DNA of 64,000 nucleotides from Escherichia coli (GCF_045037415.1 NZ_CP173438.1), one strand, 5' to 3'; positions 17,566 to 64,000 are shown, numbered from the stretch's first letter. The notes: a model not told the origin generated them from the sequence alone. Numbers and translations: made by a program.

Positions 17566-18576
17566 TTAGATATGGGTAACGATTTCTTTAATCAGCGGCG
17601 GACCTTTAAAAATAAAACCAGAATAAATTTGCACCAGTGAGGCACCCGCAGCAATCTTTTCACGCGCAGCGATAACCGAGTCAATGCCGCCAACACCAAT
17701 AATCGGCAAGCGTCCGTTTAATTCCTGTGACAAGCGGCGAATAATTTCGGTGCTTTTTAACTGAAGCGGACGACCACTTAAGCCACCGGTTTGATCACAA
17801 TTTTTCATTCCCTGAACCAGAGAACGATCGAGTGTGGTATTGGTTGCAATAACGCCATCAATATTATGGCGAACTAAACTATCGGCAACCTGGATCAATT
17901 CTTCTTCAGAAAGATCCGGCGCGATCTTCACTGCGATCGGCACATATTTATGGTGCATCACTTGCAAATCATTTTGTTTATTTTTAATCGCAGTTAAGAG
18001 ATCATCCAGCGCTTCACCATATTGCAGTGTGCGTAATCCTGGGGTATTTGGCGATGAAATATTGATGGCGATATATCCCGCATAGGCATAGATTTTTTCC
18101 ATACAAATCAGATAGTCATCTTTACCCTGCTCCACCGGCGTATCTTTATTTTTGCCGATGTTAATACCCAGAACGCCGTCATAATGGGCTTTTTTTACGT
18201 TCTCTACGAGGTTATCAACGCCAAGATTATTAAAGCCCATACGGTTGATCAAACCTTCGGCATCTACCAGACGAAAGAGACGCGGCTTGTCATTACCTGG
18301 CTGGGGACGTGGCGTGACGGTACCGATCTCGATGGATCCAAATCCCATCGCGCCTAACGCGTCAATGCACTCCCCGTCTTTATCAAGACCGGCTGCCAGA
18401 CCAAGCGGATTTTTAAACGTCAGGCCCATGCAGTTAACAGGTTTCGCAGGCACTTTCTGCCGCACCAGTGCTTCAAACGGCGTTCCTGTAATACGGCGTA
18501 ATTGCTGAAAAGTAAACTCATGAGCGCGCTCTGGATCGAGCTGGAAAAGGGCTTTACGAACGAAGGGGTAGTACAT
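17566..18576 (-). CDS. pyrD: Dihydroorotate dehydrogenase (quinone) PyrD, 336 aa
   Basis: Translation from [21 protein letters not shown]; track ORF begins at an upstream TTG. Confidence 0.93.
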
Positions 18577-18662
18577 GAACTCTCCTGGATTCCCGGTGTG
18601 CAAACCGGGGGCGTATTATGTGCGAGTTCGGACCAAAAGGGAATTGACCTGCGGCAATAAAT

Positions 18663-20340: not shown

Positions 20341-21482
20341 GTCTGAATATGTTCTGGTTTTTACCGACCCACGGTGACGGGCATTATCTGGGAACGGAAG
20401 AAGGTTCACGTCCGGTTGATCACGGTTATCTGCAACAAATTGCGCAAGCGGCGGATCGTCTGGGCTATACCGGTGTGCTGATCCCGACGGGGCGATCGTG
20501 TGAAGATGCGTGGCTGGTGGCGGCGTCGATGATCCCGGTGACACAACGGCTGAAGTTTCTTGTCGCCCTGCGCCCCAGCGTAACCTCACCTACCGTTGCC
20601 GCCCGCCAGGCCGCCACGCTTGACCGTCTCTCTAACGGACGTGCGTTGTTTAACCTGGTCACAGGCAGCGATCCCCAAGAACTGGCAGGCGACGGCGTGT
20701 TCCTTGATCATAGCGAGCGTTACGAAGCCTCGGCAGAATTTACCCAGGTCTGGCGGCGGTTGTTGCTTGGCGAGACTGTGGATTTCAACGGCAAACATAT
20801 TCATGTACGCGGGGCCAAACTGCTCTTCCCGCCGATTCAACAGCCTTATCCTCCGCTTTACTTTGGCGGATCGTCAGATGTCGCCCAGGAGCTGGCGGCA
20901 GAACAAGTTGATCTCTACCTTACCTGGGGCGAACCACCGAAACTGGTAAAAGAGAAAATCGAACACGTGCGGGCGAAAGCTGCCGCGCATGGACGCAAAA
21001 TTCGTTTCGGTATTCGTCTGCATGTGATTGTTCGTGAAACCAACGACGAAGCGTGGCAGGCCGCCGAGCGGTTAATCTCGCATCTTGATGATGAAACTAT
21101 CGCCAAAGCACAGGCCTCATTCGCCCGAACGGATTCCGTAGGACAACAGCGAATGGCGGCGCTACATAACGGCAAGCGCGACAATCTGGAGATCAGCCCC
21201 AATTTATGGGCGGGTGTTGGCTTAGTGCGCGGCGGTGCCGGGACAGCGCTGGTGGGCGATGGTCCTACGGTCGCCGCGCGAATCAACGAATACGCTGCAC
21301 TTGGCATCGACAGTTTTGTGCTTTCGGGCTACCCGCATCTGGAAGAAGCGTATCGGGTCGGCGAGTTACTGTTCCCACATCTGGATGTCGCCATCCCGGA
21401 AATTCCCCAGCCACAACCGCTGAATCCACAAGGCGAAGCGGTGGCGAATGATTTTATCCCCCGTAACGTCGCGCAAAGCTAA
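20337..21482 (+). CDS. ssuD: FMNH2-dependent alkanesulfonate monooxygenase SsuD, 381 aa
   Basis: 381-aa ORF recognised as SsuD; synteny. Confidence 0.92.
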
Positions 21483-31856: not shown

Positions 31857-32504
31857 TTACCAGACAGGCATTTCGTCTTGCAAGAAGGGATTATGCAGGC
31901 GCTCATAACCGAGAGTGGATAATGGTCCGTGACCCGGAATAAATGTCACGTCATCCCCCAGTGGCAGCAATTTATCTTTGATTGAAGAAATCAGTTGATT
32001 GTGATCGCCACGCGGGAAATCACTGCGCCCTACTCCGCCTTTGAAAATAACATCGCCAGAAATGAGCAGCCTTGCCTGCTCATTAAAAAACACCACATGA
32101 CCCGGCGTATGCCCGGGGCAATGTAACACCTGTAAAGTCACATTCCCTATGCTGATGGTATCGCCTTCGTTCAGCCAACGATCTGGCGTCAGCGGCTGGC
32201 ACTCTTCCAGACCAAACATACGACTTTGCGCAGGCAAGCCTTGCAGCCAGAACTCATCTTCTTTTTCCGGGCCAAAAACCGGCACGCCGTAATGTTGCGC
32301 CAGTTCCGCCGCTGCGCCAACGTGGTCCAGATGACCATGAGTCAGCAGGATCTGCATCAGTGTCAGGCCGCTGGCATCAACTTCCTGTTTGATTTTTTCC
32401 GCATCGCCGCCAGGATCGACCAGTGCGGCCAGACGGGTTTGTTCACACCAGATCAATGAACAGTTCTGGGAGAATGCGGTGACCGGAATAATACGATAGT
32501 TCAT
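31857..32504 (-). CDS. gloC: Metallo-beta-lactamase fold hydroxyacylglutathione hydrolase GloC (YcbL), 215 aa
   Basis: HxHxDH motif (THGHLDHVG); synteny. Confidence 0.85.
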
Positions 32505-32530
32505 ACTGCCCCTGTTTCGTTAAGCGATTA

Positions 32531-33079
32531 CTACCAGTGCCGTGCTGGCCCGGTATCAATATGCACAAAGTTACTACGTGGGTAATATCCTACACCACCT
32601 GCGCGCATAGATAACGCGGCTTTGCGAATATTGCTTAACGCGATACCTTCAATGTGGAAATCCATCGCCTGGCCTTTGGTGTGATAGCTTTTCTTCGCTA
32701 CTCCACGGCTGCGGGCGCGTAGTTCATTGTTGGTATCAATGGAACGATAACCGGAAATGAGTTGCACCGGTTTGCGGGTGCCTAACAACCCTTGCAGGCG
32801 ATACAACTGGTCGAATAATCCTGGGTCGATGGACTTTATTTTGTTCGCGCGGTAATCGCGGAAAAAATGGTTAAGTTTTGCCAATTCTTCCTGAATATAG
32901 CCTCTGCCATCGAAAAACTCCGCTTTGATTGACTCTCCGGTATGAAGATTATTGAGTGTCAAAATGCGCGGGCGTGGGGTAGAGAGTGTTGCAAACGCCG
33001 GGGTCGGCAGGATGGCGGCACCGAGTGCAACGCCACCAAGCGCCAGCAGTTTGCGGCGATTAGCGTCGAATTTGTCCAT
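32531..33079 (-). CDS. mepK: Peptidoglycan L,D-endopeptidase MepK (YcbK), 182 aa
   Basis: Translation from MDKFDANRRKLLALGG with Tat-like signal; synteny. Confidence 0.82.
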   Translation of the reverse strand: MDKFDANRRKLLALGGVALGAAILPTPAFATLSTPRPRILTLNNLHTGESIKAEFFDGRGYIQEELAKLNHFFRDYRANKIKSIDPGLFDQLYRLQGLLGTRKPVQLISGYRSIDTNNELRARSRGVAKKSYHTKGQAMDFHIEGIALSNIRKAALSMRAGGVGYYPRSNFVHIDTGPARHW

Positions 33080-33259
33080 GATAATCAAGTCTACAGGTCA
33101 ATGTTATCGTTTATATGCACTTCTGGCGCACAAGAGGCACCTTAACCGCCCGTAAAGAAGACGTCAAGATGACTCAACCCCAGCAGTGACGGGGGCTGCA
33201 GAGAATCGCCCCCGATCATGCTAATTATTACGACAACTGATTTCCCCGAACTGCTTCAT

Positions 33260-35107
33260 TTACCTGATTAATTGTTCCGCTTTCGATACAATTTGCGAGC
33301 TGGATCGCGCAGGCAGATCATAATTGTAAATATCTGTACGATACTGGGTACGACCATCAGCACCAACAAAGGCCGTCAGATAGTAGAGATTCACCGGAAT
33401 CGACTGCCGAATATTGACGTAACGCGTATCGCCCTGCTTCAGCGCATCAGAAATACGTTTGTCATTCCATCCTGCATCCTGCAACAGCATATTCGCCAGA
33501 TCGGAAGCTTTATTCACTCGTACACAGCCTGAGCTCAATGCGCGTGTATCACGTTTGAACAGATTGTGGTTCGGCGTGTCATGCAAATAAATGGCCTCTG
33601 AACTCGGCATATTGAATTTATAGCGCCCCAGCGAGTTCCGTGGGCCTGGAGCCTGCTGGAAACGGAACGGTAAATTCGAGGCCGTGATTGTAGACCAGTC
33701 AACCTGCCATGGGTCAATCGCTTCTCTGCTGTTCCAGCCGCGCATCACCGTATAGCCATGGCTTTCGAGATATCCCGGATCGTTGCGCACTTTCGGCAGA
33801 ATATCTTTGCGTGCCAGAGTTGGTGGTACGTTCCACGGCGGGTTTACCACTACGTTGTTAAGTGCACTGCTCATCATCGGCGTTTTGCGATCGGGGCGAC
33901 CGACAATGACTCGCGAATCCAGCACCTGATTGCCGTTCTGATAGTAGACCAGCGAATAGGCTGGAATGTTAACCATGATCCCGGTAGAAAGCTCTGTTGG
34001 CAGCAAGCGCAATCGCTGGATGTTGAGTGCCAACACGCCAGCACGCTGGGCGGGCGTTACGTTTAACCAGTCACGCGTTGCCGGGCCAATAGCACCATCT
34101 GCTCCCAATCCTTGCCATGCCTGAAAACGTTTAACGGCTTCCACCAGTTCATTATCGTAGGCGGCGCGAACGGCAGGCGCAGGTTTACTACGAGACGTAG
34201 TTTGTTTGTCCATCAGCTTAGTTTCTGCTGTTTCAACAGTAACAGCCGATGGGCTGACTACCGCGTCAGTTGGCGTGTCATCGCCAGGTAGCGTAATTTT
34301 CGGTCCCCCGTCCAACATGCCTGTACGTTGCAATATTTCGCGCAACGCCGGTACGTCGTTACTCCACTGTCCTGGGCGCAACGTTGCTTTACCGGTCAGT
34401 TGAGGCCACGGTTTGGTGTCACTGAGTAAGGCCAGTAACGATTCATGCATCGCCGCATATTGCGGATGCTGCGGTGCCAGTCCTGCAACAAACGTCGGCA
34501 ATTGACCTTTATCCAGCGCCAGCTGCCATTGGTTAATCACCGAAAGCGGCGGCGTTGCAAGCGCATAAGGTTTACTGCTATATAGCCAGCGAGTGCCTTT
34601 GACCGGAATATTTGCAATGAAATGGAGATAGCCCATCATCGCATCAGAGAGCACCACGTCGCGTGCCATCCCGTTAACACCAGGATCGGTCAGTAACTCT
34701 ACCCATTTATTAAACTGCGGCTGGAAACCGGCAATCGCCACCTCTGCCAGCTGTTGCTGGAAGGCTTTAACAGCATCACGGTTTTCCCACATGGGTTGCA
34801 TATCGCGTGCGGCATACAACAATTGAAGCTGGTTAAGATAAACCGGCTTATAACCTGCGGGTAATTGAGATTCGATTTGCGTGCGGGCTTTTTCAGCCGC
34901 ACCTTCAGGCAATGGCTGGATCCCCGCCATTATTGCCGTGGCTTGCGCCTGCGGCAGTGCCTCGCCCTGTTCACTGACAGCCACCGGGCTGTCGCCAGGG
35001 ATTACTTCAGGCTCATCGGCCTGCGCATTGAACAGTGGAGCGAATGTTACGGCCAGGCACAAACTGATTGCCGACAGCCGACGACCACACATCATATTAA
35101 GCAACAT
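33260..35107 (-). CDS. ldtD: L,D-transpeptidase LdtD (YcbB), 615 aa
   Basis: 615-aa ORF with signal peptide; synteny next to mukB. Confidence 0.88.
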
Positions 35108-55123: not shown

Positions 55124-55886
55124 TTACTTACCAGAGGCGATACGATCACGGATGTGTTGCGCACGCTCTGTTGATGGTGGGTGAGAATCAAACATGGACT
55201 GGGTGTGACCGCCATCCAGGCTAGCGAGTTTTTCAAAGCTACCAACCAGCCCCTGGGTACTGATGCCACGTTTCTTCAACAGATCAAAGGAGAAATCATC
55301 TGCTTCTGACTCTTTATCACGGGAGTATTTAGCATTGATAGCGCCTTCTGCGATATCACCCAATTGTGAGCGGGAAAGCTGGGAAGCCACACCGCTGGTA
55401 GCTGAAATGGCATCGCGTGCGGCCACGATCGCATAAGAAGCTTTCATTTCAGCCAGCGAGTGACCCAACGCGACGTGGCCCAGTTCATGGCCCAGAACGC
55501 CTTCAATTTCGTTGTCGTTCATCATGTCCATCAGGCCACTGTAGACACGAACACAACCGTTCGCCATCGCCCATGCGTTGACGTCGCTGGTCATATAAAC
55601 CTTATAGTTGACTGGCGTGCCATTAATATTGTTACCCAATGCTTTGGCGATTTTTGCCAGACGTTTCCCGTACTTGCTGGATTTGCTTGCCACTTTATTG
55701 CCGCTGTCCATTTCGACACAGCCCTGATTGGCGATTGCTTTAGCATCAGCATCGCTTAATGTTGCGGCTTTATAAGCATTCAGACCTGAGCTGATAGCCA
55801 AATCGGTATTAATACCGTGCGTATTCTGACATCCTGTCAGTAAGGCTGCAGAGGTCGCAATCGCCAGCAATAATTTAGTATTCTTC
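55124..55886 (-). pseudogene. ycaL: Zn-metalloprotease lipoprotein YcaL: coding body intact but native ATG start and RBS displaced at the prophage junction
   Basis: In-frame codons for KNTKLLLAIATSAALLTGC (lipobox) and HELGH zinc motif are present, but the codon where Met1 is expected reads CAG, an in-frame TAA lies 16 codons upstream, and the first usable start is a TTG at codon 7 with no SD. Confidence 0.55.
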
Positions 55887-55961
<75 letters not shown>

Positions 55962-55962
55962 T

Positions 55963-56040
<78 letters not shown>

Positions 56041-56049
56041 TTGCAGATA

Positions 56050-56439
56050 TTACTCTTTTTTCTCCGTATCTGCATCGGGTTCATCAGCAAATAGCTTGCC
56101 CTGCATCCGATCCAGTTCTTCTTTTCTTACCCGCTTAACCACGCTGTAGACCCACTGAAGCGAAACACCAAATTTGCGGGCCAGTTCGTGGTGGTTGCGT
56201 CCGTTAAACTCCCTGAAGATTTCCCGGTCGCGCTGACTGACCTTCCATACCATGCCCATCGGGAAATAAACGTTTTGCCCGCCCCAGACCTGCATCATTC
56301 GGTTCGCGACGGCCTGACCAATCTGGTCGGCAACTTCGGGCTCAATATCAATAATCTCGCGAACGGTCTCAGAGGTATGCTGTGCCAGTTCCACCAGGAG
56401 TTCCGGCCCCTTACTTCGAAACTGATTCAGGTCGCTCAT
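56050..56439 (-). CDS. mor: Mor/C-family transcriptional activator (Mu middle-operon regulator homologue), 129 aa
   Basis: Same length as Mu Mor; motifs GGQNVYFP and REFNGRNHHELARKFGVSLQWVYSVVKRVR parallel the Mor HTH region as recalled. Confidence 0.75.
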   Translation of the reverse strand: MSDLNQFRSKGPELLVELAQHTSETVREIIDIEPEVADQIGQAVANRMMQVWGGQNVYFPMGMVWKVSQRDREIFREFNGRNHHELARKFGVSLQWVYSVVKRVRKEELDRMQGKLFADEPDADTEKKE

Positions 56440-56860
56440 GTTTGACTCCCGCAGCTCTGCGCTGCCACTTCTTCAGTTTCTCAATAACACTGCTTGCCTG
56501 TTCAGTACTGAGCCAGCGCAGGGCGCTGATGCCCGTTTCCCGCTTGATCCACCTCGCTAATGCATTTTCTGAACGGTCACGAACAATGCCGGCAGCAGCC
56601 ATTTCAAGCCATAGCGCACGAATTTTCCTGGACTGCGGATGGTTATCAAGCGGTAAACCGGAGCTGGCTTTTCTGGCTGGTTTAACGCGAAAGCCTTTCT
56701 TTTTCATGGATTCCAGCACGCAGTTTAGTTGTGTGGTATCCATTCCTTTGGTTGAGGCTTTACCGGTCAGCCCCTGTAACATCTGGCGGTAGGTGTCTTC
56801 ATCCATACCCAGTTCATTACGGGCAATATGGATAAGCTGTATCAGGCGTTTTTTCTGCAT
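56411..56860 (-). CDS. GemA-like protein (Mu gp16 / DUF1018 family), 149 aa
   Basis: N-terminal LIQLIHIARNELGMDEDTYRQMLQGLTGKASTKGM resembles Mu GemA/gp16 as recalled; sits immediately upstream of mor as in Mu. Confidence 0.55.
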   Translation of the reverse strand: MQKKRLIQLIHIARNELGMDEDTYRQMLQGLTGKASTKGMDTTQLNCVLESMKKKGFRVKPARKASSGLPLDNHPQSRKIRALWLEMAAAGIVRDRSENALARWIKRETGISALRWLSTEQASSVIEKLKKWQRRAAGVKHERPESVSK

Positions 56861-56861
56861 A

Positions 56862-57068
56862 TCATCTCCTTTTTTTCAGTCTGTCGGCAACAATGTCGGT
56901 TGCAGCTGGCAGGGTGACTGGCCAGAACAACATGACGGCGGTCATGTACAGGATGTAATGCGCGGTGTCGTAGTGCCTGCCATAGCCCAGGGAACGATGA
57001 AGTCTTGCGCTGCATGATCCTGCGTACATATACCAGAAAAGAAAACAGACAATGGTTTCAGTAGTCAT
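56862..57068 (-). CDS. Small hydrophobic protein, about 68 aa (start at internal Met of track ORF 56862..57224)
   Basis: MTTETIVCFLFWYMYAGSCSA... predicted TM segments; packed between neighbouring genes. Confidence 0.3.
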   Translation of the reverse strand: MTTETIVCFLFWYMYAGSCSARLHRSLGYGRHYDTAHYILYMTAVMLFWPVTLPAATDIVADRLKKRR

Positions 57069-57288
57069 TCTGAATACCTCCCCATTCGATATGAATATTA
57101 CGGGCAGCAATGACAGGGTCGTTATTCCACCATGCACCTGACATGTATTTTTCAACCTGTTCGCGTCCGGCAATAACACCAATTGTGATCCCCGGCCTGA
57201 CGTTCTTAAAAAAGGCGCGGGCAAAAAGGTATCTGGCAGATATTCGGCAGGCTTTTAATTTCCGGCTTTTACCTGATAGCGTAATCAT
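57058..57288 (-). CDS. Hypothetical phage protein, 76 aa
   Basis: Start overlaps the stop of the upstream gene (coupled arrangement); no recognisable motif. Confidence 0.35.
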   Translation of the reverse strand: MITLSGKSRKLKACRISARYLFARAFFKNVRPGITIGVIAGREQVEKYMSGAWWNNDPVIAARNIHIEWGGIQNDY

Positions 57289-57968
57289 CTGGCCTCCAGT
57301 TTCTGTTGTTCCTGCCCACTGACCGGGCGGTGCAGTCTGACGTTCTGCCCTTCACGAAACCCCGCATAGCGCGAGGCGTCGCCATTGCGGCTTCTTCCCG
57401 GTTTACGCGCCCTGGTGGTTTGCGTCTGCGGGTATTTATGTTCCAGCCACTGCTGCATCAGTTCACGCTCATCATCGGTCAGGGCAAAGGACTGTATTTC
57501 ACTGATAACGGCCAGCACCCAGCCTTCGGCAAACTGGTCTCCACGGCTGGTGCGGGTGGCGGTTTTTATTCTTTTGTTCTGTGCACTGATATACTGCTGA
57601 CGCGCCTTTTTCAGCTGACGGGCCAGCACTTCCCAGGTGTATGCAGCCAGTGCCGCACGTTCCCGGTTGCCGTAGAACCCCACAGACGGATGCGTGCCGG
57701 GGTGAATGATGGAGTTAACACCAAATACCTCGCGGATGATGTTCATCAGGCCCAGCATGTAGCGCGGTGGACGGAGACTGCCTGTCGGCCAGTAGTGACT
57801 GATGGTTTCATCAATATCACTCATAGCAATGTCGGAATGTGTGATGCCGTGAACATCCATCAGTTTACGGGCTCGGCGCAGTGCCAGAGCGGCCTCGTGC
57901 GGGTTGCCGGATGCGGCCAGCGCCAGCAACTTTTTCAGTTTCTCAATGTGTTTATTCTGGTCTGTCAT
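57285..57968 (-). CDS. Hypothetical phage protein with DUF2786-like N-terminal motif, about 227 aa
   Basis: KHIEKLKKLLALAASGNPHEAALALRRARKLMDVHGI motif; start placed at the second Met to avoid a 40-nt overlap (track ORF 57285..58004). Confidence 0.45.
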   Translation of the reverse strand: MTDQNKHIEKLKKLLALAASGNPHEAALALRRARKLMDVHGITHSDIAMSDIDETISHYWPTGSLRPPRYMLGLMNIIREVFGVNSIIHPGTHPSVGFYGNRERAALAAYTWEVLARQLKKARQQYISAQNKRIKTATRTSRGDQFAEGWVLAVISEIQSFALTDDERELMQQWLEHKYPQTQTTRARKPGRSRNGDASRYAGFREGQNVRLHRPVSGQEQQKLEAR

Positions 57969-58180
57969 TGTTCTGTATCTCCGGTATTTTTCTGCCGTTT
58001 CCATGCCCGGACAGCGTCGGACAGCTCTTTCAGGCTGTATGCTGCTTTAAGCTTTTCCCATAACCACTGTGTTGTTATGTGCATCAGCAGGGCAGCCAGG
58101 GCTGCCCCCGCACTGAGGCATGTCGCCAGGCCAGTAAGAATCAGTGTCCATGCGGTGATTTCCCTGAGTATGTCAGCCAT
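57965..58180 (-). CDS. Small membrane protein, 71 aa
   Basis: Single predicted TM helix (WTLILTGLATCLSAGAALAALLM) followed by a charged tail. Confidence 0.4.
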   Translation of the reverse strand: MADILREITAWTLILTGLATCLSAGAALAALLMHITTQWLWEKLKAAYSLKELSDAVRAWKRQKNTGDTEQ

Positions 58181-58194
58181 TGAATGCCTCCCGG

Positions 58195-58491
58195 TTACTC
58201 GTTCGTGTAAATCACGCCCAGTCGTGCAGCCAGACGTTCCAGTTTTTTCTGTTTGTGGAAGTCAATCAGCCGGTCCATCCCCTGAAGGCGCAGTTGCTCT
58301 GTCATGATTTCCACGTCTGCCAGCTCTGCCGCGAGGTCACTTTCGCTGCCCTGTCCGTTCAGGTTGCGGGCGGCACTGGCCGCCAGTTCAGCGGCCTCTT
58401 CTGCCAGTTTCAGGGCCTGTGCGTCCGGCCCGAAACGCTGCAGGGCCAGACGGTAGAGGGCGGTGCGGGTGAGTTCGGTGTTTCGTGTCAT
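58195..58491 (-). CDS. MazG-like nucleotide pyrophosphohydrolase-domain protein, 98 aa
   Basis: EEAAELAA...AAELADVEIM pattern typical of the small all-alpha MazG/HisE fold. Confidence 0.5.
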   Translation of the reverse strand: MTRNTELTRTALYRLALQRFGPDAQALKLAEEAAELAASAARNLNGQGSESDLAAELADVEIMTEQLRLQGMDRLIDFHKQKKLERLAARLGVIYTNE

Positions 58492-58500
58492 GCCGCGCCC

Positions 58501-58773
58501 TCAGTGCTTCCGGCTGACGGTGATGTGCAGGCCGCCTTCTGCAGTGGTTTCCATCCGGTACGGCACCTCATGCTCTGCCGTGTGGGTGAGTGTGTTCATC
58601 AGTACCTGCAGGGCAGCCTCCTTTCCGTTGGTCGCCACAATGGCCTGTGTGGCCATGCTGATTAGCGCCGTCAGGACGTGCTTCACATCGGTGAGGTCGC
58701 GGCATTCACACTCGTTGACATAGTGTTCAACAAGGGTTCGGGTGCGCTGTCGTGCTTCCTGTGGGGTAATCAT
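58501..58773 (-). CDS. Hypothetical phage protein, 90 aa
   Basis: ORF in operon context, coupled to the downstream gene; no motif recognised. Confidence 0.4.
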   Translation of the reverse strand: MITPQEARQRTRTLVEHYVNECECRDLTDVKHVLTALISMATQAIVATNGKEAALQVLMNTLTHTAEHEVPYRMETTAEGGLHITVSRKH

Positions 58774-58964
58774 TGCGAGTCCTCCCTGTCAGGGCGGGAG
58801 AATTCCATGACGGGCACGTCTGCCGAAAAATGCTGGCTGCAGTACGGGCAGACCAGGGTGACGCGTACCGCAGGGATGTGGTATTTACCGGACATCACGG
58901 CGATGGCGCTGTGAAAACGCAGGGCTGTTATATCCCTCTCGCACTGAATACATTTAAATATCAT
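58770..58964 (-). CDS. Small zinc-ribbon protein, 64 aa
   Basis: CxxC (CIQC) ... CxxC (CPYC) pairs. Confidence 0.45.
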   Translation of the reverse strand: MIFKCIQCERDITALRFHSAIAVMSGKYHIPAVRVTLVCPYCSQHFSADVPVMEFSRPDREDSQ

Positions 58965-59061
58965 GATTTAATTCTCCTCTGTTTCCGGCGTGCAGAAGCC
59001 CGCGGCGCTGACGTCGGAATAAAAAAGAAAATGTTTTTATTAAATAATTAACGTGGTGTGT

Positions 59062-59592
59062 TTACTGCACATCCTGCTCAAAAGGAATTATTGAAAAATC
59101 CTCAATGTCGCTTTTAATGGAAATACCGGGAATATTTTTCACGGCCTCTTTTTCATTCAGGATAGCGTCTTTATTTATTTCCTCTTTTACACGAATAAAG
59201 CGCTCAAGCCCCAGACGTCTCAGTAATTCAATAACATTATCCGCCCCACGGATACTGACTGATGGCGGACGGTTTCGCCACTGCACCTCGCCGGTGGTGA
59301 GGTTAGCGAACTTCACCTTCCCGTTGCCGGTCAGTTCATCACGGTGTGCCTCACACCATGTCTGAATACCGGACTGCAGTTCGGCCATGCGTTTTTTCAG
59401 GCTCTCGGTGAGCGGGGCATAACGTGCGGTGATATCGCCAATGGCGTCATTCATTTCTGTTTCAGCCCTGACCAGTTCACGTTGTGCGTCACCGAGTAGT
59501 CTGATTCCCTCAATGACCTCTTCACGTGTCCCCGGCACCCAGAGTGCTGCTGCGGCCTTGATACGTTTTGCACCTTTTGTACTTTTTGCCAT
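59062..59592 (-). CDS. gam: Gam-like host-nuclease inhibitor / DNA-end binding protein (Mu Gam family), 176 aa
   Basis: MAKSTKGAKRIKAAAALWVP...TEMNDAIGDIT...WCEAHRDELT...VSIRGADNVIELLRRLGLERFIRVKEEINKDAIL...FSIIPFEQD closely parallels Mu Gam as recalled. Confidence 0.85.
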   Translation of the reverse strand: MAKSTKGAKRIKAAAALWVPGTREEVIEGIRLLGDAQRELVRAETEMNDAIGDITARYAPLTESLKKRMAELQSGIQTWCEAHRDELTGNGKVKFANLTTGEVQWRNRPPSVSIRGADNVIELLRRLGLERFIRVKEEINKDAILNEKEAVKNIPGISIKSDIEDFSIIPFEQDVQ

Positions 59593-59619
59593 TTTTTATG
59601 ATTTCTCCAGTTGTGCTGA

Positions 59620-59889
59620 TTACCACAAAGATTCCGGCCACACGACGCGACAGCCGTGCAGTTCGAAAACGCCCTGACGGAAATATCCCCTGTGGTCATG
59701 TCCGGTATACAGATAACAGGCCTTTCCCTGCTCAAGCATGCGCATGCAATGCGCACTCCGGGAAACGCGGATGACAGGTTTGTTACCCCTGATGGTGATG
59801 CTTTGTACATCCGTGTTCGTCGCCTTAAGCGCCATAATGGCTGACTGCACTTTGCTGATTTGCTGGTTGATACCTGTGGTGGATTTCAT
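59620..59889 (-). CDS. Hypothetical phage protein, 89 aa
   Basis: ORF between the MuB-like gene and gam, where Mu carries kil; no motif recognised. Confidence 0.4.
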   Translation of the reverse strand: MKSTTGINQQISKVQSAIMALKATNTDVQSITIRGNKPVIRVSRSAHCMRMLEQGKACYLYTGHDHRGYFRQGVFELHGCRVVWPESLW

Positions 59890-59891
59890 TA

Positions 59892-61097
59892 TTAAACCCC
59901 TTTGACAACGTCAGCGTTGACCTGTGGAACCCCGATTTCAGCGGCCAGATTCATGGCGGCTATTACCAGGTTACTGACGGCCAGCGGATACAGCAGGCTG
60001 ACCATATTTTTACGGTGACTTCCCGGATTGCTCAGGCGGGCACGTATGGCATCCACTGCACCGGCGTCCATAATGTCCGTCAGCTGTTTACCGGCCCGTT
60101 GCAGTTTGAACGTCAGAAATTCTTCAAGGTTATTGTCCAGAGGCAGAAGTTCGACCACCTCACAGCGCTGAACGACTTCACGGACTTCCATATTGCGTTC
60201 AGACAGTTTTGTCGCCAGTTCCGGCTGGCCAATCAGCACGATGGACAGCAGTTTTTTGAAACCGGACTCCAGCTCAAAAAAGCGTTTGAGGTGTTTCAGT
60301 GTCGGAATGGGCAGACTGTGGGCCTCCTCAATCACCAGAACGTGGCTGAACCCCGCCTGGCTGCTGTCTTTCAGGACGCGATGCAACTGGCGAAAACGGG
60401 CGTCCTGACTGCGTCTGATGCTTTCCAGTGGTGCGATGGTACTGATAATGGCTTCGGCAATAGCTGCTGCCTTCAGGGTTTTCCCTTTCACATCGTTGTC
60501 TTCCATAGCGATGATGTATGGCTCGATAACAATTACCGGCGCATTCTCGCGGTTGATACGTTCAGTCAGGTCGCGGCGCAGCGTGGATTTACCCGCACCG
60601 GACTCACCGATGACGGCCATAAACCCACCATGACGGGCTGTCTGGTACAGCGCCTCACGCACGTAGCGAATGTCCGGGGTGGTGAACACATCATCAGAAC
60701 CCTGCATGGCTTCGTCGGCGAACGGGTCACGGAAAAGACCAAACGCTTTTTTGGTTGCTGGAAATAACACCTGTTTTTTGAGTAACATATTCTCTTCCTC
60801 ACTGAGGCTCGTTTTATCTGTGGTACCCGCTGTACGGGGCGTGGCCGCGCCCTGTACAGCATCAAAACTCTTCGTTGTATCAATCCCCTGACTTTCCAGC
60901 CAGGACGCAAGACGCCGGCGCACTTCTCCGGGGCTGGTGCGGGGCCACGCGTTATGATTCACAATCTGGGCCAGCGTGGCCTCAGAAACATCGACAGCTC
61001 TCGCCACCACCGCCTGTGGAATACGGGCCTCTTTCAGTTGCTGCTTCAGTACCAGCATGTTTCCCTCCTCAGTTGCCGTTAACAATGCTGATAACAC
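59892..61097 (-). CDS. MuB-like transposition ATPase (N-terminal HTH plus AAA+), up to 401 aa
   Basis: Walker A GESGAGKST, N-terminal Xre-like HTH (AVVARAVDVSEATLAQIV); immediately downstream of the transposase; start uncertain (the Met at 61058 would remove the overlap with the transposase gene). Confidence 0.8.
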   Translation of the reverse strand: MLSALLTATEEGNMLVLKQQLKEARIPQAVVARAVDVSEATLAQIVNHNAWPRTSPGEVRRRLASWLESQGIDTTKSFDAVQGAATPRTAGTTDKTSLSEEENMLLKKQVLFPATKKAFGLFRDPFADEAMQGSDDVFTTPDIRYVREALYQTARHGGFMAVIGESGAGKSTLRRDLTERINRENAPVIVIEPYIIAMEDNDVKGKTLKAAAIAEAIISTIAPLESIRRSQDARFRQLHRVLKDSSQAGFSHVLVIEEAHSLPIPTLKHLKRFFELESGFKKLLSIVLIGQPELATKLSERNMEVREVVQRCEVVELLPLDNNLEEFLTFKLQRAGKQLTDIMDAGAVDAIRARLSNPGSHRKNMVSLLYPLAVSNLVIAAMNLAAEIGVPQVNADVVKGV

Positions 61098-62838
61098 TGC
61101 TGCGGGCCGGTGTGGTCAGCGTGGCCATGACTTCATCCAGTGCGGCTTCCGGTACGCCGTCCGGGTACTGTGCCGTTAACTGGCGGTAATGTTCCGGCGT
61201 CCAGGTAAGGCCGTCGGCGCTGAACTTATCGCGCAGGGCTTTCGCGGCCTCCACATGAGTCATGGGACGTTGTTCAGTGCGCGGCCCGCGTACGTCAGAG
61301 GCCTGACCACGCTTCGGCATATAGGCCGGAAGTGTGGTGTCGTCGATATGTTTATACGGGTCAAGCCGCCCGCCGAACGGCAGCGCCTTCGCCTTGCGTG
61401 CGGCGGCTGCATCTGCGGCGTTGTCTGTACCGGTAACCAGCGCTTCGGTTTCTTTTGCCGCCATCTGTGCCGGGGTTTCCGGCAGGGCTTTGTAACTTTC
61501 GCCAAATACCGCCGCGCCTTCAGCAAAGCCAAACTCGTTCTTTCTGACCTCTTCGACCAGGAAGAACGTCTCGTGGCCGTCCTCACCGGTCAGAACCACC
61601 TGTGCCACATCGCTGCGCCATGGGTTACGGGTAATCATCAGTTTTTCACCAACCAGTACGCCCGGTACCGTTGATACGTCAAATTCAGTGCCCCGGAACG
61701 AGACACGAAGTTTTGGCGTGACTTTGCGGAGTTCTGGTGCCGCCACAGCCAGTTCACGACATACCTCAACGGAAGGCGCTTTTTTCAGCTGCTCAGCAGT
61801 AATCTTCAGCCAGATATCCGTGCGGGTTTTACCGTGGCGGCTGTGAACAGCCGTGGCGTTAAAGTGGCTGCGCCATTTCGCGGCCAGCGCGTTGAGTTCT
61901 TCCAGACTGTGAACCGGCCGGAACTTCAGACCCGGCTCCAGCTTGCGTTCGATAATGTCACGCGCCTTTTCCACCTGTCCGGTGGCGCGGGCGTTATGCG
62001 GCTTGTGCGCTATCAGGTCGATGCCCAGTGAGCGGCACATGTTTTTCGTCATACCCGCGGTGTTTGCCGAGCCGGGGTCGAGATAGAGTATTTTCGGCAC
62101 GCCGTGCAGCACGTCTGCGCCGCCACGCTCCTGCATGGCGTTGATAAGCACAGAACACAGGTTCTCACCTGATTCCGCGCCCGTCACATACTCAACGTAA
62201 ATCCAGCCGCTGGCATGGTCGGTAATCTCGTAACTCCACACGCGGTCACTGGCGATACGGGCAAGGTTAGCGGGCTTGTTCTTGTAGAACTTCGCGCTGT
62301 CCATCACCTGCAGCCCTTTATGTCCATTGCTCAGGTAGTAAAGCGTGCAGAGTGAGGCGTCAATCTGCCAGACATGATTGGGATGCAGACTGGCCACTTC
62401 GGTATGTGGTGCAGGGGCATCCAGTTGTTCCGGGTGCAGGCCATAGTTACGCAGAGCACGGCTGATGGCATCTTCAGACAACGGGAAAAACTCACTGGTG
62501 GTTTCATCTGTTCTGCCTGCGGTGATAAAGCCGTTAGCCCGCAGGGTTTCCACTGCATCTGCGATGGAATAGAGACGCTTACCGTTCTTGCGGGTGGCCT
62601 CACGCAGTGTGGCAGATATCAGCGCGGCTTCGTCGCGGGTCAGGGCGCTGCGCCCGGCATCGGCGCGTTTTTTGCGTTTATCAGTCACAGATACCTCCTT
62701 CAGCCTGCGCAGCAGAGTGGCGCGGGACATGCCAAGTTCAGCACAGGCAGCGTCGTATATTGCACCGCGTTTACCATGCCCCGCGTCACGTGCCGCGCGG
62801 GCTGTTTCAACCAGTTTTTCAGTCAGTGCCGGGGTCAT
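61069..62838 (-). CDS. DDE (rve/Mu-type) transposase, 589 aa
   Basis: N-terminal HTH; catalytic core with VWQIDAS ... YLDPGSANT ... ATGQVE arrangement. Confidence 0.85.
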   Translation of the reverse strand: MTPALTEKLVETARAARDAGHGKRGAIYDAACAELGMSRATLLRRLKEVSVTDKRKKRADAGRSALTRDEAALISATLREATRKNGKRLYSIADAVETLRANGFITAGRTDETTSEFFPLSEDAISRALRNYGLHPEQLDAPAPHTEVASLHPNHVWQIDASLCTLYYLSNGHKGLQVMDSAKFYKNKPANLARIASDRVWSYEITDHASGWIYVEYVTGAESGENLCSVLINAMQERGGADVLHGVPKILYLDPGSANTAGMTKNMCRSLGIDLIAHKPHNARATGQVEKARDIIERKLEPGLKFRPVHSLEELNALAAKWRSHFNATAVHSRHGKTRTDIWLKITAEQLKKAPSVEVCRELAVAAPELRKVTPKLRVSFRGTEFDVSTVPGVLVGEKLMITRNPWRSDVAQVVLTGEDGHETFFLVEEVRKNEFGFAEGAAVFGESYKALPETPAQMAAKETEALVTGTDNAADAAAARKAKALPFGGRLDPYKHIDDTTLPAYMPKRGQASDVRGPRTEQRPMTHVEAAKALRDKFSADGLTWTPEHYRQLTAQYPDGVPEAALDEVMATLTTPARSSVISIVNGN

Positions 62839-62853
62839 AGCTTGTCTTCCCTG

Positions 62854-63171
62854 TTATCCGATTCTGGCGGCAATTTTTCTGGCGAGGTCGCACAGTGTTT
62901 CGCCATCGCAGGTTTTCACCACGGTATTTACCGGTTGCGGTGCAACTACCGGGCGTAATGCTGACTGATTCTGCAGACGTCTTATCTGCTGCATCAGCAT
63001 CACCTCCATCGTCAGTACAAACGGGTGCGTCTCCTGTGCGGGTACGCAGATTTCACCGGAAGGGGTCACCACGCGGAAACCCTGCACCATCTCCGGCAGC
63101 AGATTACACAGTGCGTGCCCCAGTGCCTCCGGGCTGTCCATCAGGGTATTTTGTGTGTTATTCGTATTCAT
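62854..63171 (-). CDS. Hypothetical phage protein, 105 aa
   Basis: ORF immediately upstream of the transposase; start overlaps the stop of the upstream gene. Confidence 0.4.
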   Translation of the reverse strand: MNTNNTQNTLMDSPEALGHALCNLLPEMVQGFRVVTPSGEICVPAQETHPFVLTMEVMLMQQIRRLQNQSALRPVVAPQPVNTVVKTCDGETLCDLARKIAARIG

Positions 63172-64000
63172 TACTGCATATCCTCCGGTCGGTTGATTTC
63201 AGGTTCCGGTTCGGTCAGCCAGGCGGGGGCATCGTTACCCGATGGAGCGGCCTCAAGGTCAAACGTCTCACGTAATGCATGAACACTGCGTTCAATCTGG
63301 CAGACCAGACCGGCCATGAAATCTCTGGGGGTATCGATCATGTTTTTGGTGCAGTATTCACACAGGGTCTCAAAAACACTGGACAGCCGGACGGCGATAG
63401 CCGATTCGGCCTCAACCGCTAATGCCGTCACTTCCGCCCGCAATTTTTTCAGTTCTTCGTCTGGCGGCGGAGGTTGCAGGCGCGATTTCTTCTCCAGTTT
63501 TGTGGCCAGTTCGTTGATTTTTTCGTCCTTTCCGGCAAGCACCTGTTGCTGAGCTGCGTTGGTTTCGCGCGCTTCACGCAGGGCGGCCTTCAGTTCGCGG
63601 CTGGTCATGCGATCAATATCATCAAGCGTTGCACCGGCGACGGTTCCACCATCAGCTAATGCGTCGAGTTCTTCGTCATCCAGAACCATCAGTTCATATA
63701 ACTTGGTTTTTCCCAAAACGCTCAGCGCTGAGCGTTTTGGCTGTTCATCTCCATTGCCGAGAAATTTCACGCTGGCCTGCATCATGCGACGAGCTACCTG
63801 TGGTGCTAATCCGAGGTCGTTTTCCAGAATATTTGTGAAATCACCATGCGGTTCATTTTCTTTTAAGATGATCAGCCGCTTACCCGCTTCCAACATAGAT
63901 TCAGCACTCTGCGCCATATAAAAACGTGCTTCGTGAACGATGCGTTCACGTTCATAAGGCAGTCCATCACCAAACTGCTGCATGATCTCCATGCGATGCT
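63171..64000 (-). CDS. Hypothetical phage protein, at least 273 aa, probably 5'-truncated by the window edge
   Basis: Long ORF with coiled-coil-like C-terminal half; reading frame stays open to position 64000. Confidence 0.45.
   Translation of the reverse strand, partial: HRMEIMQQFGDGLPYERERIVHEARFYMAQSAESMLEAGKRLIILKENEPHGDFTNILENDLGLAPQVARRMMQASVKFLGNGDEQPKRSALSVLGKTKLYELMVLDDEELDALADGGTVAGATLDDIDRMTSRELKAALREARETNAAQQQVLAGKDEKINELATKLEKKSRLQPPPPDEELKKLRAEVTALAVEAESAIAVRLSSVFETLCEYCTKNMIDTPRDFMAGLVCQIERSVHALRETFDLEAAPSGNDAPAWLTEPEPEINRPEDMQ

Follow-up and report, generated by a model that had tools for sequence, protein, structure and literature searches.

The window analysed here is a 64,000-nucleotide stretch of Escherichia coli DNA (GCF_045037415.1, NZ_CP173438.1), the last part of which belongs to a BcepMu-like transposable prophage (Table 1). 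The rest is ordinary E. coli chromosome, as judged from rpsA, cmk and ycaL and from a PyrD leader (Rfam RF02373, 97.9 bits, positions 18571-18644, minus strand), the latter being the sole Rfam family in the window. The 8 kb around the gene under study, which encodes a protein of 71 residues, are 100% identical to Escherichia phage PhiKM (PQ738613), a phage classified as Bcepmuvirus with uropathogenic E. coli as its source. On the minus strand the early operon of the prophage comprises, in order, ORFs of 273 and 105 codons, the transposase, an ExeA-like B protein, an 89-aa ORF, Gam, ORFs of 64 and 90 residues, a MazG-like gene, the 71-aa gene, a DUF2786/DUF7168 gene, a 76-aa and a 68-aa ORF, GemA and Mor, and this arrangement toward the left end is the BcepMu layout. 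The 71-aa gene thus follows the transposase, B and Gam and precedes GemA and Mor, and both its immediate neighbours and the BcepMu-type gene order confirm the initial annotation, which had assigned it to a transposable-phage early operon.

Table 1. Features of the prophage early region in window coordinates
Feature	Position	Strand	Remarks
BcepMu-like transposable prophage	55887..64000	-	left end (5'-TG at 55887) to window edge
Mor	56050..56439	-	
GemA	56411..56860	-	
68-aa protein	56862..57068	-	phrog_6436, function unannotated; between 76-aa gene and GemA
DUF2786 + DUF7168 protein, 227 aa	57285..57968	-	downstream neighbour; phrog_421
ATGA stop/start overlap	57965..57968	-	71-aa gene and downstream DUF2786/DUF7168 gene; sequence reading
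71-aa CDS	57965..58180	-	ATG start, 71 codons plus TGA; PHROG 3958; identical to RefSeq WP_000763554.1
Basic tail, codons 42-71, predicted cytoplasmic	57968..58057	-	7 K/R; invariant K43 and A56; nearly invariant E52
221-bp indel cassette	57984..58204	-	relative to EC11/E30; comparison with sister prophages
Predicted TM helix, codons 8-41	58058..58159	-	34 residues without charge; G17, C21, G25; ends at W41
Short direct repeats, codons 19-32	58085..58125	-	GC-rich
Shine-Dalgarno GGGAGG	58187..58192	-	6 nt 5' of the ATG of the 71-aa gene; direct sequence reading
TAA stop of MazG-like gene	58195..58197	-	
MazG-like NTP pyrophosphohydrolase homologue, 98 aa	58195..58491	-	upstream neighbour; phrog_2245
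64-aa ORF	58770..58964	-	phrog_3401
Gam	59062..59592	-	
Transposase	61069..62838	-	

The left end of the prophage is fixed by three comparisons that all agree, namely with a sister prophage at another site, with the uninterrupted ycaL locus and with the start of the PhiKM match. It falls within the start codon of ycaL, a host gene for a metallopeptidase (window 55870-55890), where the native ATGAAGAAT has become CAGAAGAAT and the region upstream of the gene is now separated from it by the prophage. As a consequence, ycaL is probably silenced, or made solely from a TTG further downstream. The PhiKM record is a permuted partial genome that begins with the late genes, and window position 55887 corresponds to its position 20577; owing to this permutation the right and left phage ends are joined inside the record (20576/20577).

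Several other early genes of the prophage deserve mention. The 98-aa MazG-like protein aligns with the phrog_2245 profile in the C-terminal half of the latter alone (113-211 of 218) and is a short form of the NTP pyrophosphohydrolase family. The product of the 64-aa ORF contains two CxxC pairs and is zinc-ribbon-like; its counterpart in Klebsiella phage KP12 is a 62-aa ORF, and at this position the ORF annotated for PhiKM runs on the other strand, whereas RefSeq has the one on the minus strand. The 68-aa protein, which likewise has a homologue in KP12, is a second small hydrophobic protein of the early operon and displays two hydrophobic segments on inspection by eye. The KP12 record itself (OM835952, clone KP12_2), although classified within the Vequintavirinae, contains a BcepMu-like early region (transposase, ExeA-like protein, GemA, Mor) which is about 89% identical to the window; the probable source of the record is a transposable prophage that was co-purified, not the phage it is named after.

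The 71-aa reading frame, whose limits and length agree exactly with those given in the initial annotation, encodes MADILREITAWTLILTGLATCLSAGAALAALLMHITTQWLWEKLKAAYSLKELSDAVRAWKRQKNTGDTEQ, beginning with MADILREITAW and ending with NTGDTEQ*. Its Shine-Dalgarno element directly follows the stop codon of the MazG-like gene, and its own stop codon overlaps the start of the DUF2786/DUF7168 gene, from which translational coupling of these two genes is inferred. The gene shares the orientation of its operon neighbours and is closely packed with them. A scan for consensus elements revealed neither a sigma-70-like promoter nor a terminator-like site adjoining the gene on its own strand, whereby weak or non-sigma-70 promoters could escape such a simple scan; across the 8-kb region, sites of either kind are no more numerous than in shuffled sequence. 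Expression of the gene in the prophage state is therefore unlikely, as no promoter-like site lies upstream. No RNA family of Rfam is found within or near the gene.

That this reading frame is a genuine coding gene, conserved as such, follows from several lines of evidence. The protein matches the HMM of PHROG 3958 over its full length (residues 1-71 on profile positions 1-71, E = 1.1e-41), and it is annotated as a CDS in PhiKM as well as by PGAP. A 351-bp query is matched in 620 of 5426 complete E. coli genomes, in 527 of them at a coverage of at least 80%; almost all of these 527 copies are at least 99% identical, they occupy many chromosomal positions, and none resides on a plasmid. The 71-codon frame is intact in 28 of 30 IMG/VR loci. 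A divergent allele (P0012/P0009) is 70-79% identical; its first half differs at 40% of the nucleotides and is nevertheless still open and hydrophobic. HMMER, run exhaustively against 1.84 billion representatives, retrieved relatives of 60-64 residues at 33-40% identity, to which a profile search added more, and homologues at 30-39% identity retain the same architecture.

Comparison with the divergent allele gives dN/dS ratios of about 0.37-0.44 for the N-terminal and of 0-0.18 for the C-terminal half, and within the subgroup of 60-aa proteins the ratio amounts to 0.3-0.66. Selection on the family is only moderate. Rare public variants carry in-frame indels (the triplet AAL gained or lost, or ten codons lost) or frameshifts, most of them being singletons, and they fall in the helix-coding region, so that the constraint on helix length is loose. 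Codons 19-32 contain short GC-rich direct repeats (CTGGC..., GCCCTGGCTGCCCTG), and the variants found there are of the slippage type.

The gene is not a constant component of such prophages. Sister prophages in E. coli strains EC11 and E30 are otherwise collinear and lack it; there the MazG-like gene extends to ...GVMYTGDTEQ* and overlaps the start of the DUF2786 gene directly. Relative to these, the prophage in the window contains a cassette of 221 bp, the junctions of which are ambiguous by 2-3 nt owing to a TAC/AC microhomology. The cassette supplies a new stop for the MazG-like gene (...GVIYTNE*), the ribosome-binding site and codons 1-65 of the 71-aa gene, while the last six codons (TGDTEQ) and the coupling ATGA once formed the 3' end of the MazG-like gene. 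Distant homologues stop where this TGDTEQ tail begins. In a third arrangement, found in six complete genomes, the same slot harbors a gene for a 127-aa Ea22-like protein (phrog_250-type) together with the divergent allele, and this block is flanked by a ACCGGAGA repeat. An equivalent gene is also absent from BcepMu (gp01-gp21) and from Klebsiella phage KP12. The 71-aa gene is accessory and lies outside the core early genes of Bcepmuvirus.

Relatives of the gene reside in rather different mobile elements. In Klebsiella Mu-like prophages they are located in the early operon, immediately before GemA and Mor. In Salmonella lambdoid prophages of the P22 Cro-type they occupy the PL region, with an Ead/Ea22 gene on one side and xis-int on the other, and one lambdoid relative lies in a nin region, where it precedes NinG and the Q antiterminator. 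Others lie upstream of DUF551-type genes, and a further one belongs to an ICE-like locus with shufflon, TraF and TraG/TrwB genes; a micro-synteny of an Ea22-like, a small TM and a DUF551-like gene recurs in several elements. Wherever both flanks can be read, the neighbours are co-oriented and abut or overlap the gene, and for every homologue with readable flanks the surrounding operon is one that lysogens keep repressed. The DNA common to different elements measures about 235 bp, comprising a gene of 183 bp with some 32 bp upstream and 20 bp downstream; such a segment is 98% identical between a Salmonella lambdoid prophage of the P22 Cro-type (L012, 7969-8203) and the ICE-like locus (L013, 7969-8203), and the flanking DNA is unrelated. 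Because the shared DNA is essentially the gene alone, the small TM gene is an independent unit of exchange. Taken from these comparisons, it is a single-gene accessory module which recombination has transferred among transposable phages, lambda-like phages and an ICE-like element of Enterobacteriaceae. A tblastn search with the 71-aa protein and two distant members against 50,697 phage records returned PhiKM only, where the low-complexity filter may mask the helix, and a blastn search with the ICE-like copy against the PLSDB plasmids gave no match.

With regard to its architecture, the protein has a maximum Kyte-Doolittle hydropathy of 1.98 over 19 residues, compared with a commonly used cut-off of about 1.6 for TM segments. 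The uncharged segment of residues 8-41 is preceded by a single K/R with a net charge of -1 and followed by seven K/R, and the 14 aligned family members all show the same asymmetry, with 0-1 K/R on the N-terminal and 5-8 on the C-terminal side of the helix. By the positive-inside rule this asymmetry predicts an N-out/C-in topology. Given these features, the protein is best described as a predicted single-pass protein of the inner membrane with about 7 residues exposed to the periplasm. AlphaFold2, run on the family alignment, yields one continuous helix from residue 2 to 66 with a mean pLDDT of 80. The TM helix and the charged tail proposed in the initial annotation are thereby borne out, and the topology prediction it had suggested as a check returned a single hydrophobic segment.

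Gly17, Cys21, Gly25, Trp41, Lys43 and Ala56 are invariant, and Glu52 nearly so, among family members that are 31-39% identical and one close allele at 70%. Gly17-x3-Cys21-x3-Gly25 corresponds to positions i, i+4 and i+8 on one face of the helix; small residues at this spacing are typical of helix-packing motifs. The helix of the 71-aa allele is furthermore rich in Ala, Gly, Ser and Thr. Trp41-x-Lys43 is located at the predicted cytoplasmic interface and is followed by AYS..E...AV(K/R)A(Y/W)K, a segment whose hydrophobic moment is high (0.5). A lipoprotein or signal peptide is ruled out by the acidic N-terminus, by T, I or V in front of the invariant cysteine (Thr in the present protein), where G, A or S would be usual for a lipobox, and by the approximately 20 hydrophobic residues that follow it.

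All six diverse family members tested match PHROG 3958, a family without functional annotation, and the 71-aa protein is therefore a member of an already catalogued hypothetical family. Scans of six members against Pfam, NCBIfam and PADLOC produced noise only and no holin Pfam, and the corresponding PHROG scan gave no family annotated as Kil, immunity, exclusion or holin at E <= 0.1. Apart from phrog_3958, no PHROG match is better than E = 0.013, and exclusion or immunity does not occur among the annotations of these weaker matches. The best hit of a PDB profile search, a helix of a plant phosphate transporter (E = 0.21), is not meaningful, and a literature search returned nothing on the WP_000763554 protein.

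For the action of the protein we tentatively favor, as a possible rather than a probable reading, a dispensable early-phase factor that would bind a host inner-membrane target through its helix. Within this model we infer membrane insertion and orientation, the timing of expression, helix-helix binding to the host target and any phenotype. The protein would be bitopic, with about 7 periplasmic residues, one helix and a basic, helical cytoplasmic tail of some 30 residues. It would be produced only once the early (lytic) operon of the prophage is switched on, alongside the transposase, Gam, GemA and Mor, and its translation would be coupled to that of its neighbours. The Gly17-x3-Cys21-x3-Gly25 face would then pack against a TM helix of a host inner-membrane protein or complex, a putative target conserved in E. 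coli, Salmonella and Klebsiella, whereas Trp41-x-Lys43 and the juxtamembrane helix AYS..E...AV(K/R)A(Y/W)K would contact the cytoplasmic face of the same target. The activity of the target may thus be altered during early lytic development, either for host takeover or for protection. Repeated movement of the single gene between unrelated elements, together with the invariant residues, suggests that it acts usefully on its own on a conserved host target, and with an external part of only about 7 residues a periplasmic mode of action is disfavored. On the other hand, selection is only moderate (dN/dS 0.3-0.66), the indel and frameshift variants of the helix region point to a loose length constraint, the Gly/Cys/Gly face would suit self-association equally well, and the positive-inside rule is a prediction and not a measurement.

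A more specific effect on the host, by which a small membrane protein would arrest division or growth early after induction via the divisome or another essential membrane component, as a functional analogue of Kil, seems unlikely to us. The position in the early operon, the small bitopic architecture with its conserved cytoplasmic helix and the precedent of SPO1 Gp56, which blocks division (PMC6873191), would fit such a role. However, homology to Mu Kil, a soluble protein encoded directly after gene B, is absent, no Kil-annotated PHROG is matched, and the gene is dispensable and occurs at an ICE-like locus as well.

Similarly doubtful is an exclusion factor that would block the entry of DNA from superinfecting phages, or from conjugative elements, at the inner membrane in the manner of T4 Imm or P22 SieA during the lytic phase. 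The predicted location and the accessory status of the protein agree with this, as do its distribution over different mobile elements, all of which gain from excluding competitors, and the inner-membrane location of the known injection blockers T4 Imm/Sp and P22 SieA (PMC11436027). Without a promoter-like site of its own, and placed in operons repressed in lysogens, the gene would, in contrast, hardly protect a lysogen, and exclusion by expression from the prophage is disfavored for the same two reasons. In addition, only about 7 residues are predicted to be periplasmic, and neither PHROG nor PADLOC returned an exclusion-annotated match. Expression early in the lytic cycle would at the same time be compatible with an Imm-like action.

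A still bolder extension, which we consider rather improbable, is that the family represents an uncharacterised class of 'plug-in' membrane effectors of about 60-70 residues, each encoded by a single-gene cassette that moves among transposable phages, lambdoid phages and integrative conjugative elements. Such an effector would neutralise a single inner-membrane machine conserved in enterobacteria, be it an anti-phage defence effector anchored in the membrane, a route of DNA entry or the like. If this were true, phages and conjugative elements would have in common a new factor of anti-defence or entry control.

The glycine-zipper-like face of invariant small residues and the Ala/Gly/Ser/Thr-rich helix of the 71-aa allele could alternatively serve homo-oligomerisation via Gly-x3-Cys-x3-Gly, so that the protein would act as a self-associating pore or depolarising peptide resembling holins, pinholins or type I toxins. 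This is improbable: the gene lies outside the lysis cassette, a depolarising pore formed early would abort phage development, and there is no similarity to holin PHROGs or to YdfD.

Even less probable is a membrane tether for the product of a neighbouring gene, be it the DUF2786/DUF7168 protein or the MazG-like pyrophosphohydrolase. It would account for the ATGA overlap with the DUF2786 gene, for the location of both E. coli allele types directly upstream of DUF2786 and for the NTP-pyrophosphohydrolase-type gene adjoining in the window as well as in a further locus (L015). Against it, DUF2786 and MazG-like genes co-occur without the 71-aa gene, the neighbours of the homologues are unrelated (GemA, NinG, DUF551-like, Ea22-like), and the exchanged unit is the gene alone. 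An obligate partnership with either DUF2786 or MazG-like genes is rejected, as the neighbours vary.

Finally, a non-functional ORF, spurious or decaying, to which the frameshift and indel variants in public data and the only moderate selection might point, is highly improbable in view of the ribosome-binding site, the operon coupling, dN/dS below 1, the invariant residues retained by distant homologues in several genera and element types, the intact frame in 28 of 30 viral loci and the near-identical copies at many insertion sites in 527 genomes.

About one in ten complete E. coli genomes, ST131 isolates included, carry the 71-aa gene on a transposable prophage. Its mobility as a single gene across phage types and an ICE-like element is a neat and modest finding; otherwise the protein joins the hypothetical small membrane proteins of phages and would not surprise a specialist.

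In order to compare the 71-aa protein with known systems, Kil of phage Mu (Mup05) has to be considered first, as the initial annotation had named a Kil-like factor as a candidate. Both proteins are small (74 aa in the case of Kil) and are specified by early-operon genes of a transposable phage. Kinship, however, is not borne out: in a 42-protein database Mup05 gave E = 3.1 and -0.1 bits by phmmer and E = 1.3 with the family profile, so that a Kil homologue is rejected, and no PHROG annotated as Kil is matched; in the same set, other Mu or BcepMu early proteins lack similarity to the 71-aa protein as well. The premise that the small membrane proteins of such early regions include the Kil type is itself wrong for Mu, since Mu Kil, with a best 19-residue hydropathy of 0.78 as opposed to 1.98 in the 71-aa protein, has no hydrophobic segment and is soluble. 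The positions differ, too: Mu kil directly follows gene B, while five genes separate the B homologue from the 71-aa gene.

Holins and pinholins were compared as well; in the phage 21 pinholin a GxxxSxxxG zipper lines the channel. The 71-aa gene is found outside the lysis cassette, the holin-region genes of PhiKM being located at 32316-34366 and hence apart from the early operon, and it has no holin match in Pfam or PHROGs. YdfD, the 63-aa lysis protein of the Qin prophage, is likewise small with an N-terminal hydrophobic segment, and its gene belongs to the accessory region on the PL side of a lambdoid prophage, a type of region in which the Salmonella homologues are found too; homology is ruled out by an hhalign probability of 0.5% over 7 columns.

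SPO1 Gp56 is a small membrane protein, as are SidA of Caulobacter and YneA of B. subtilis. Gp56 is an early host-takeover protein which on its own inhibits cell division of B. subtilis and attenuates growth (PMC6873191); phage and host are unrelated to those described here, and the comparison is by analogy only. The injection-blocking exclusion proteins T4 Imm/Sp, P22 SieA and HK97 gp15 are small phage proteins of the inner membrane (PMC11436027), and the 71-aa protein is likewise small and predicted to reside there. It differs from them in showing no homology via PHROGs, in lacking a promoter-like site of its own, in belonging to an operon repressed in the lysogen and in exposing only about 7 predicted periplasmic residues.

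A parallel for the preferred reading of helix packing against a host target is offered by AcrZ and the E protein of phiX174. There is no sequence relationship to either, and the analogy is one of mechanism alone. Small N-out/C-in proteins typically act through in-membrane packing of their helix against polytopic proteins, as in the pairs AcrZ-AcrB and phiX174 E-MraY, and like AcrZ and E the 71-aa protein would combine a very short N-terminus outside the membrane with one TM helix and a basic tail in the cytoplasm.
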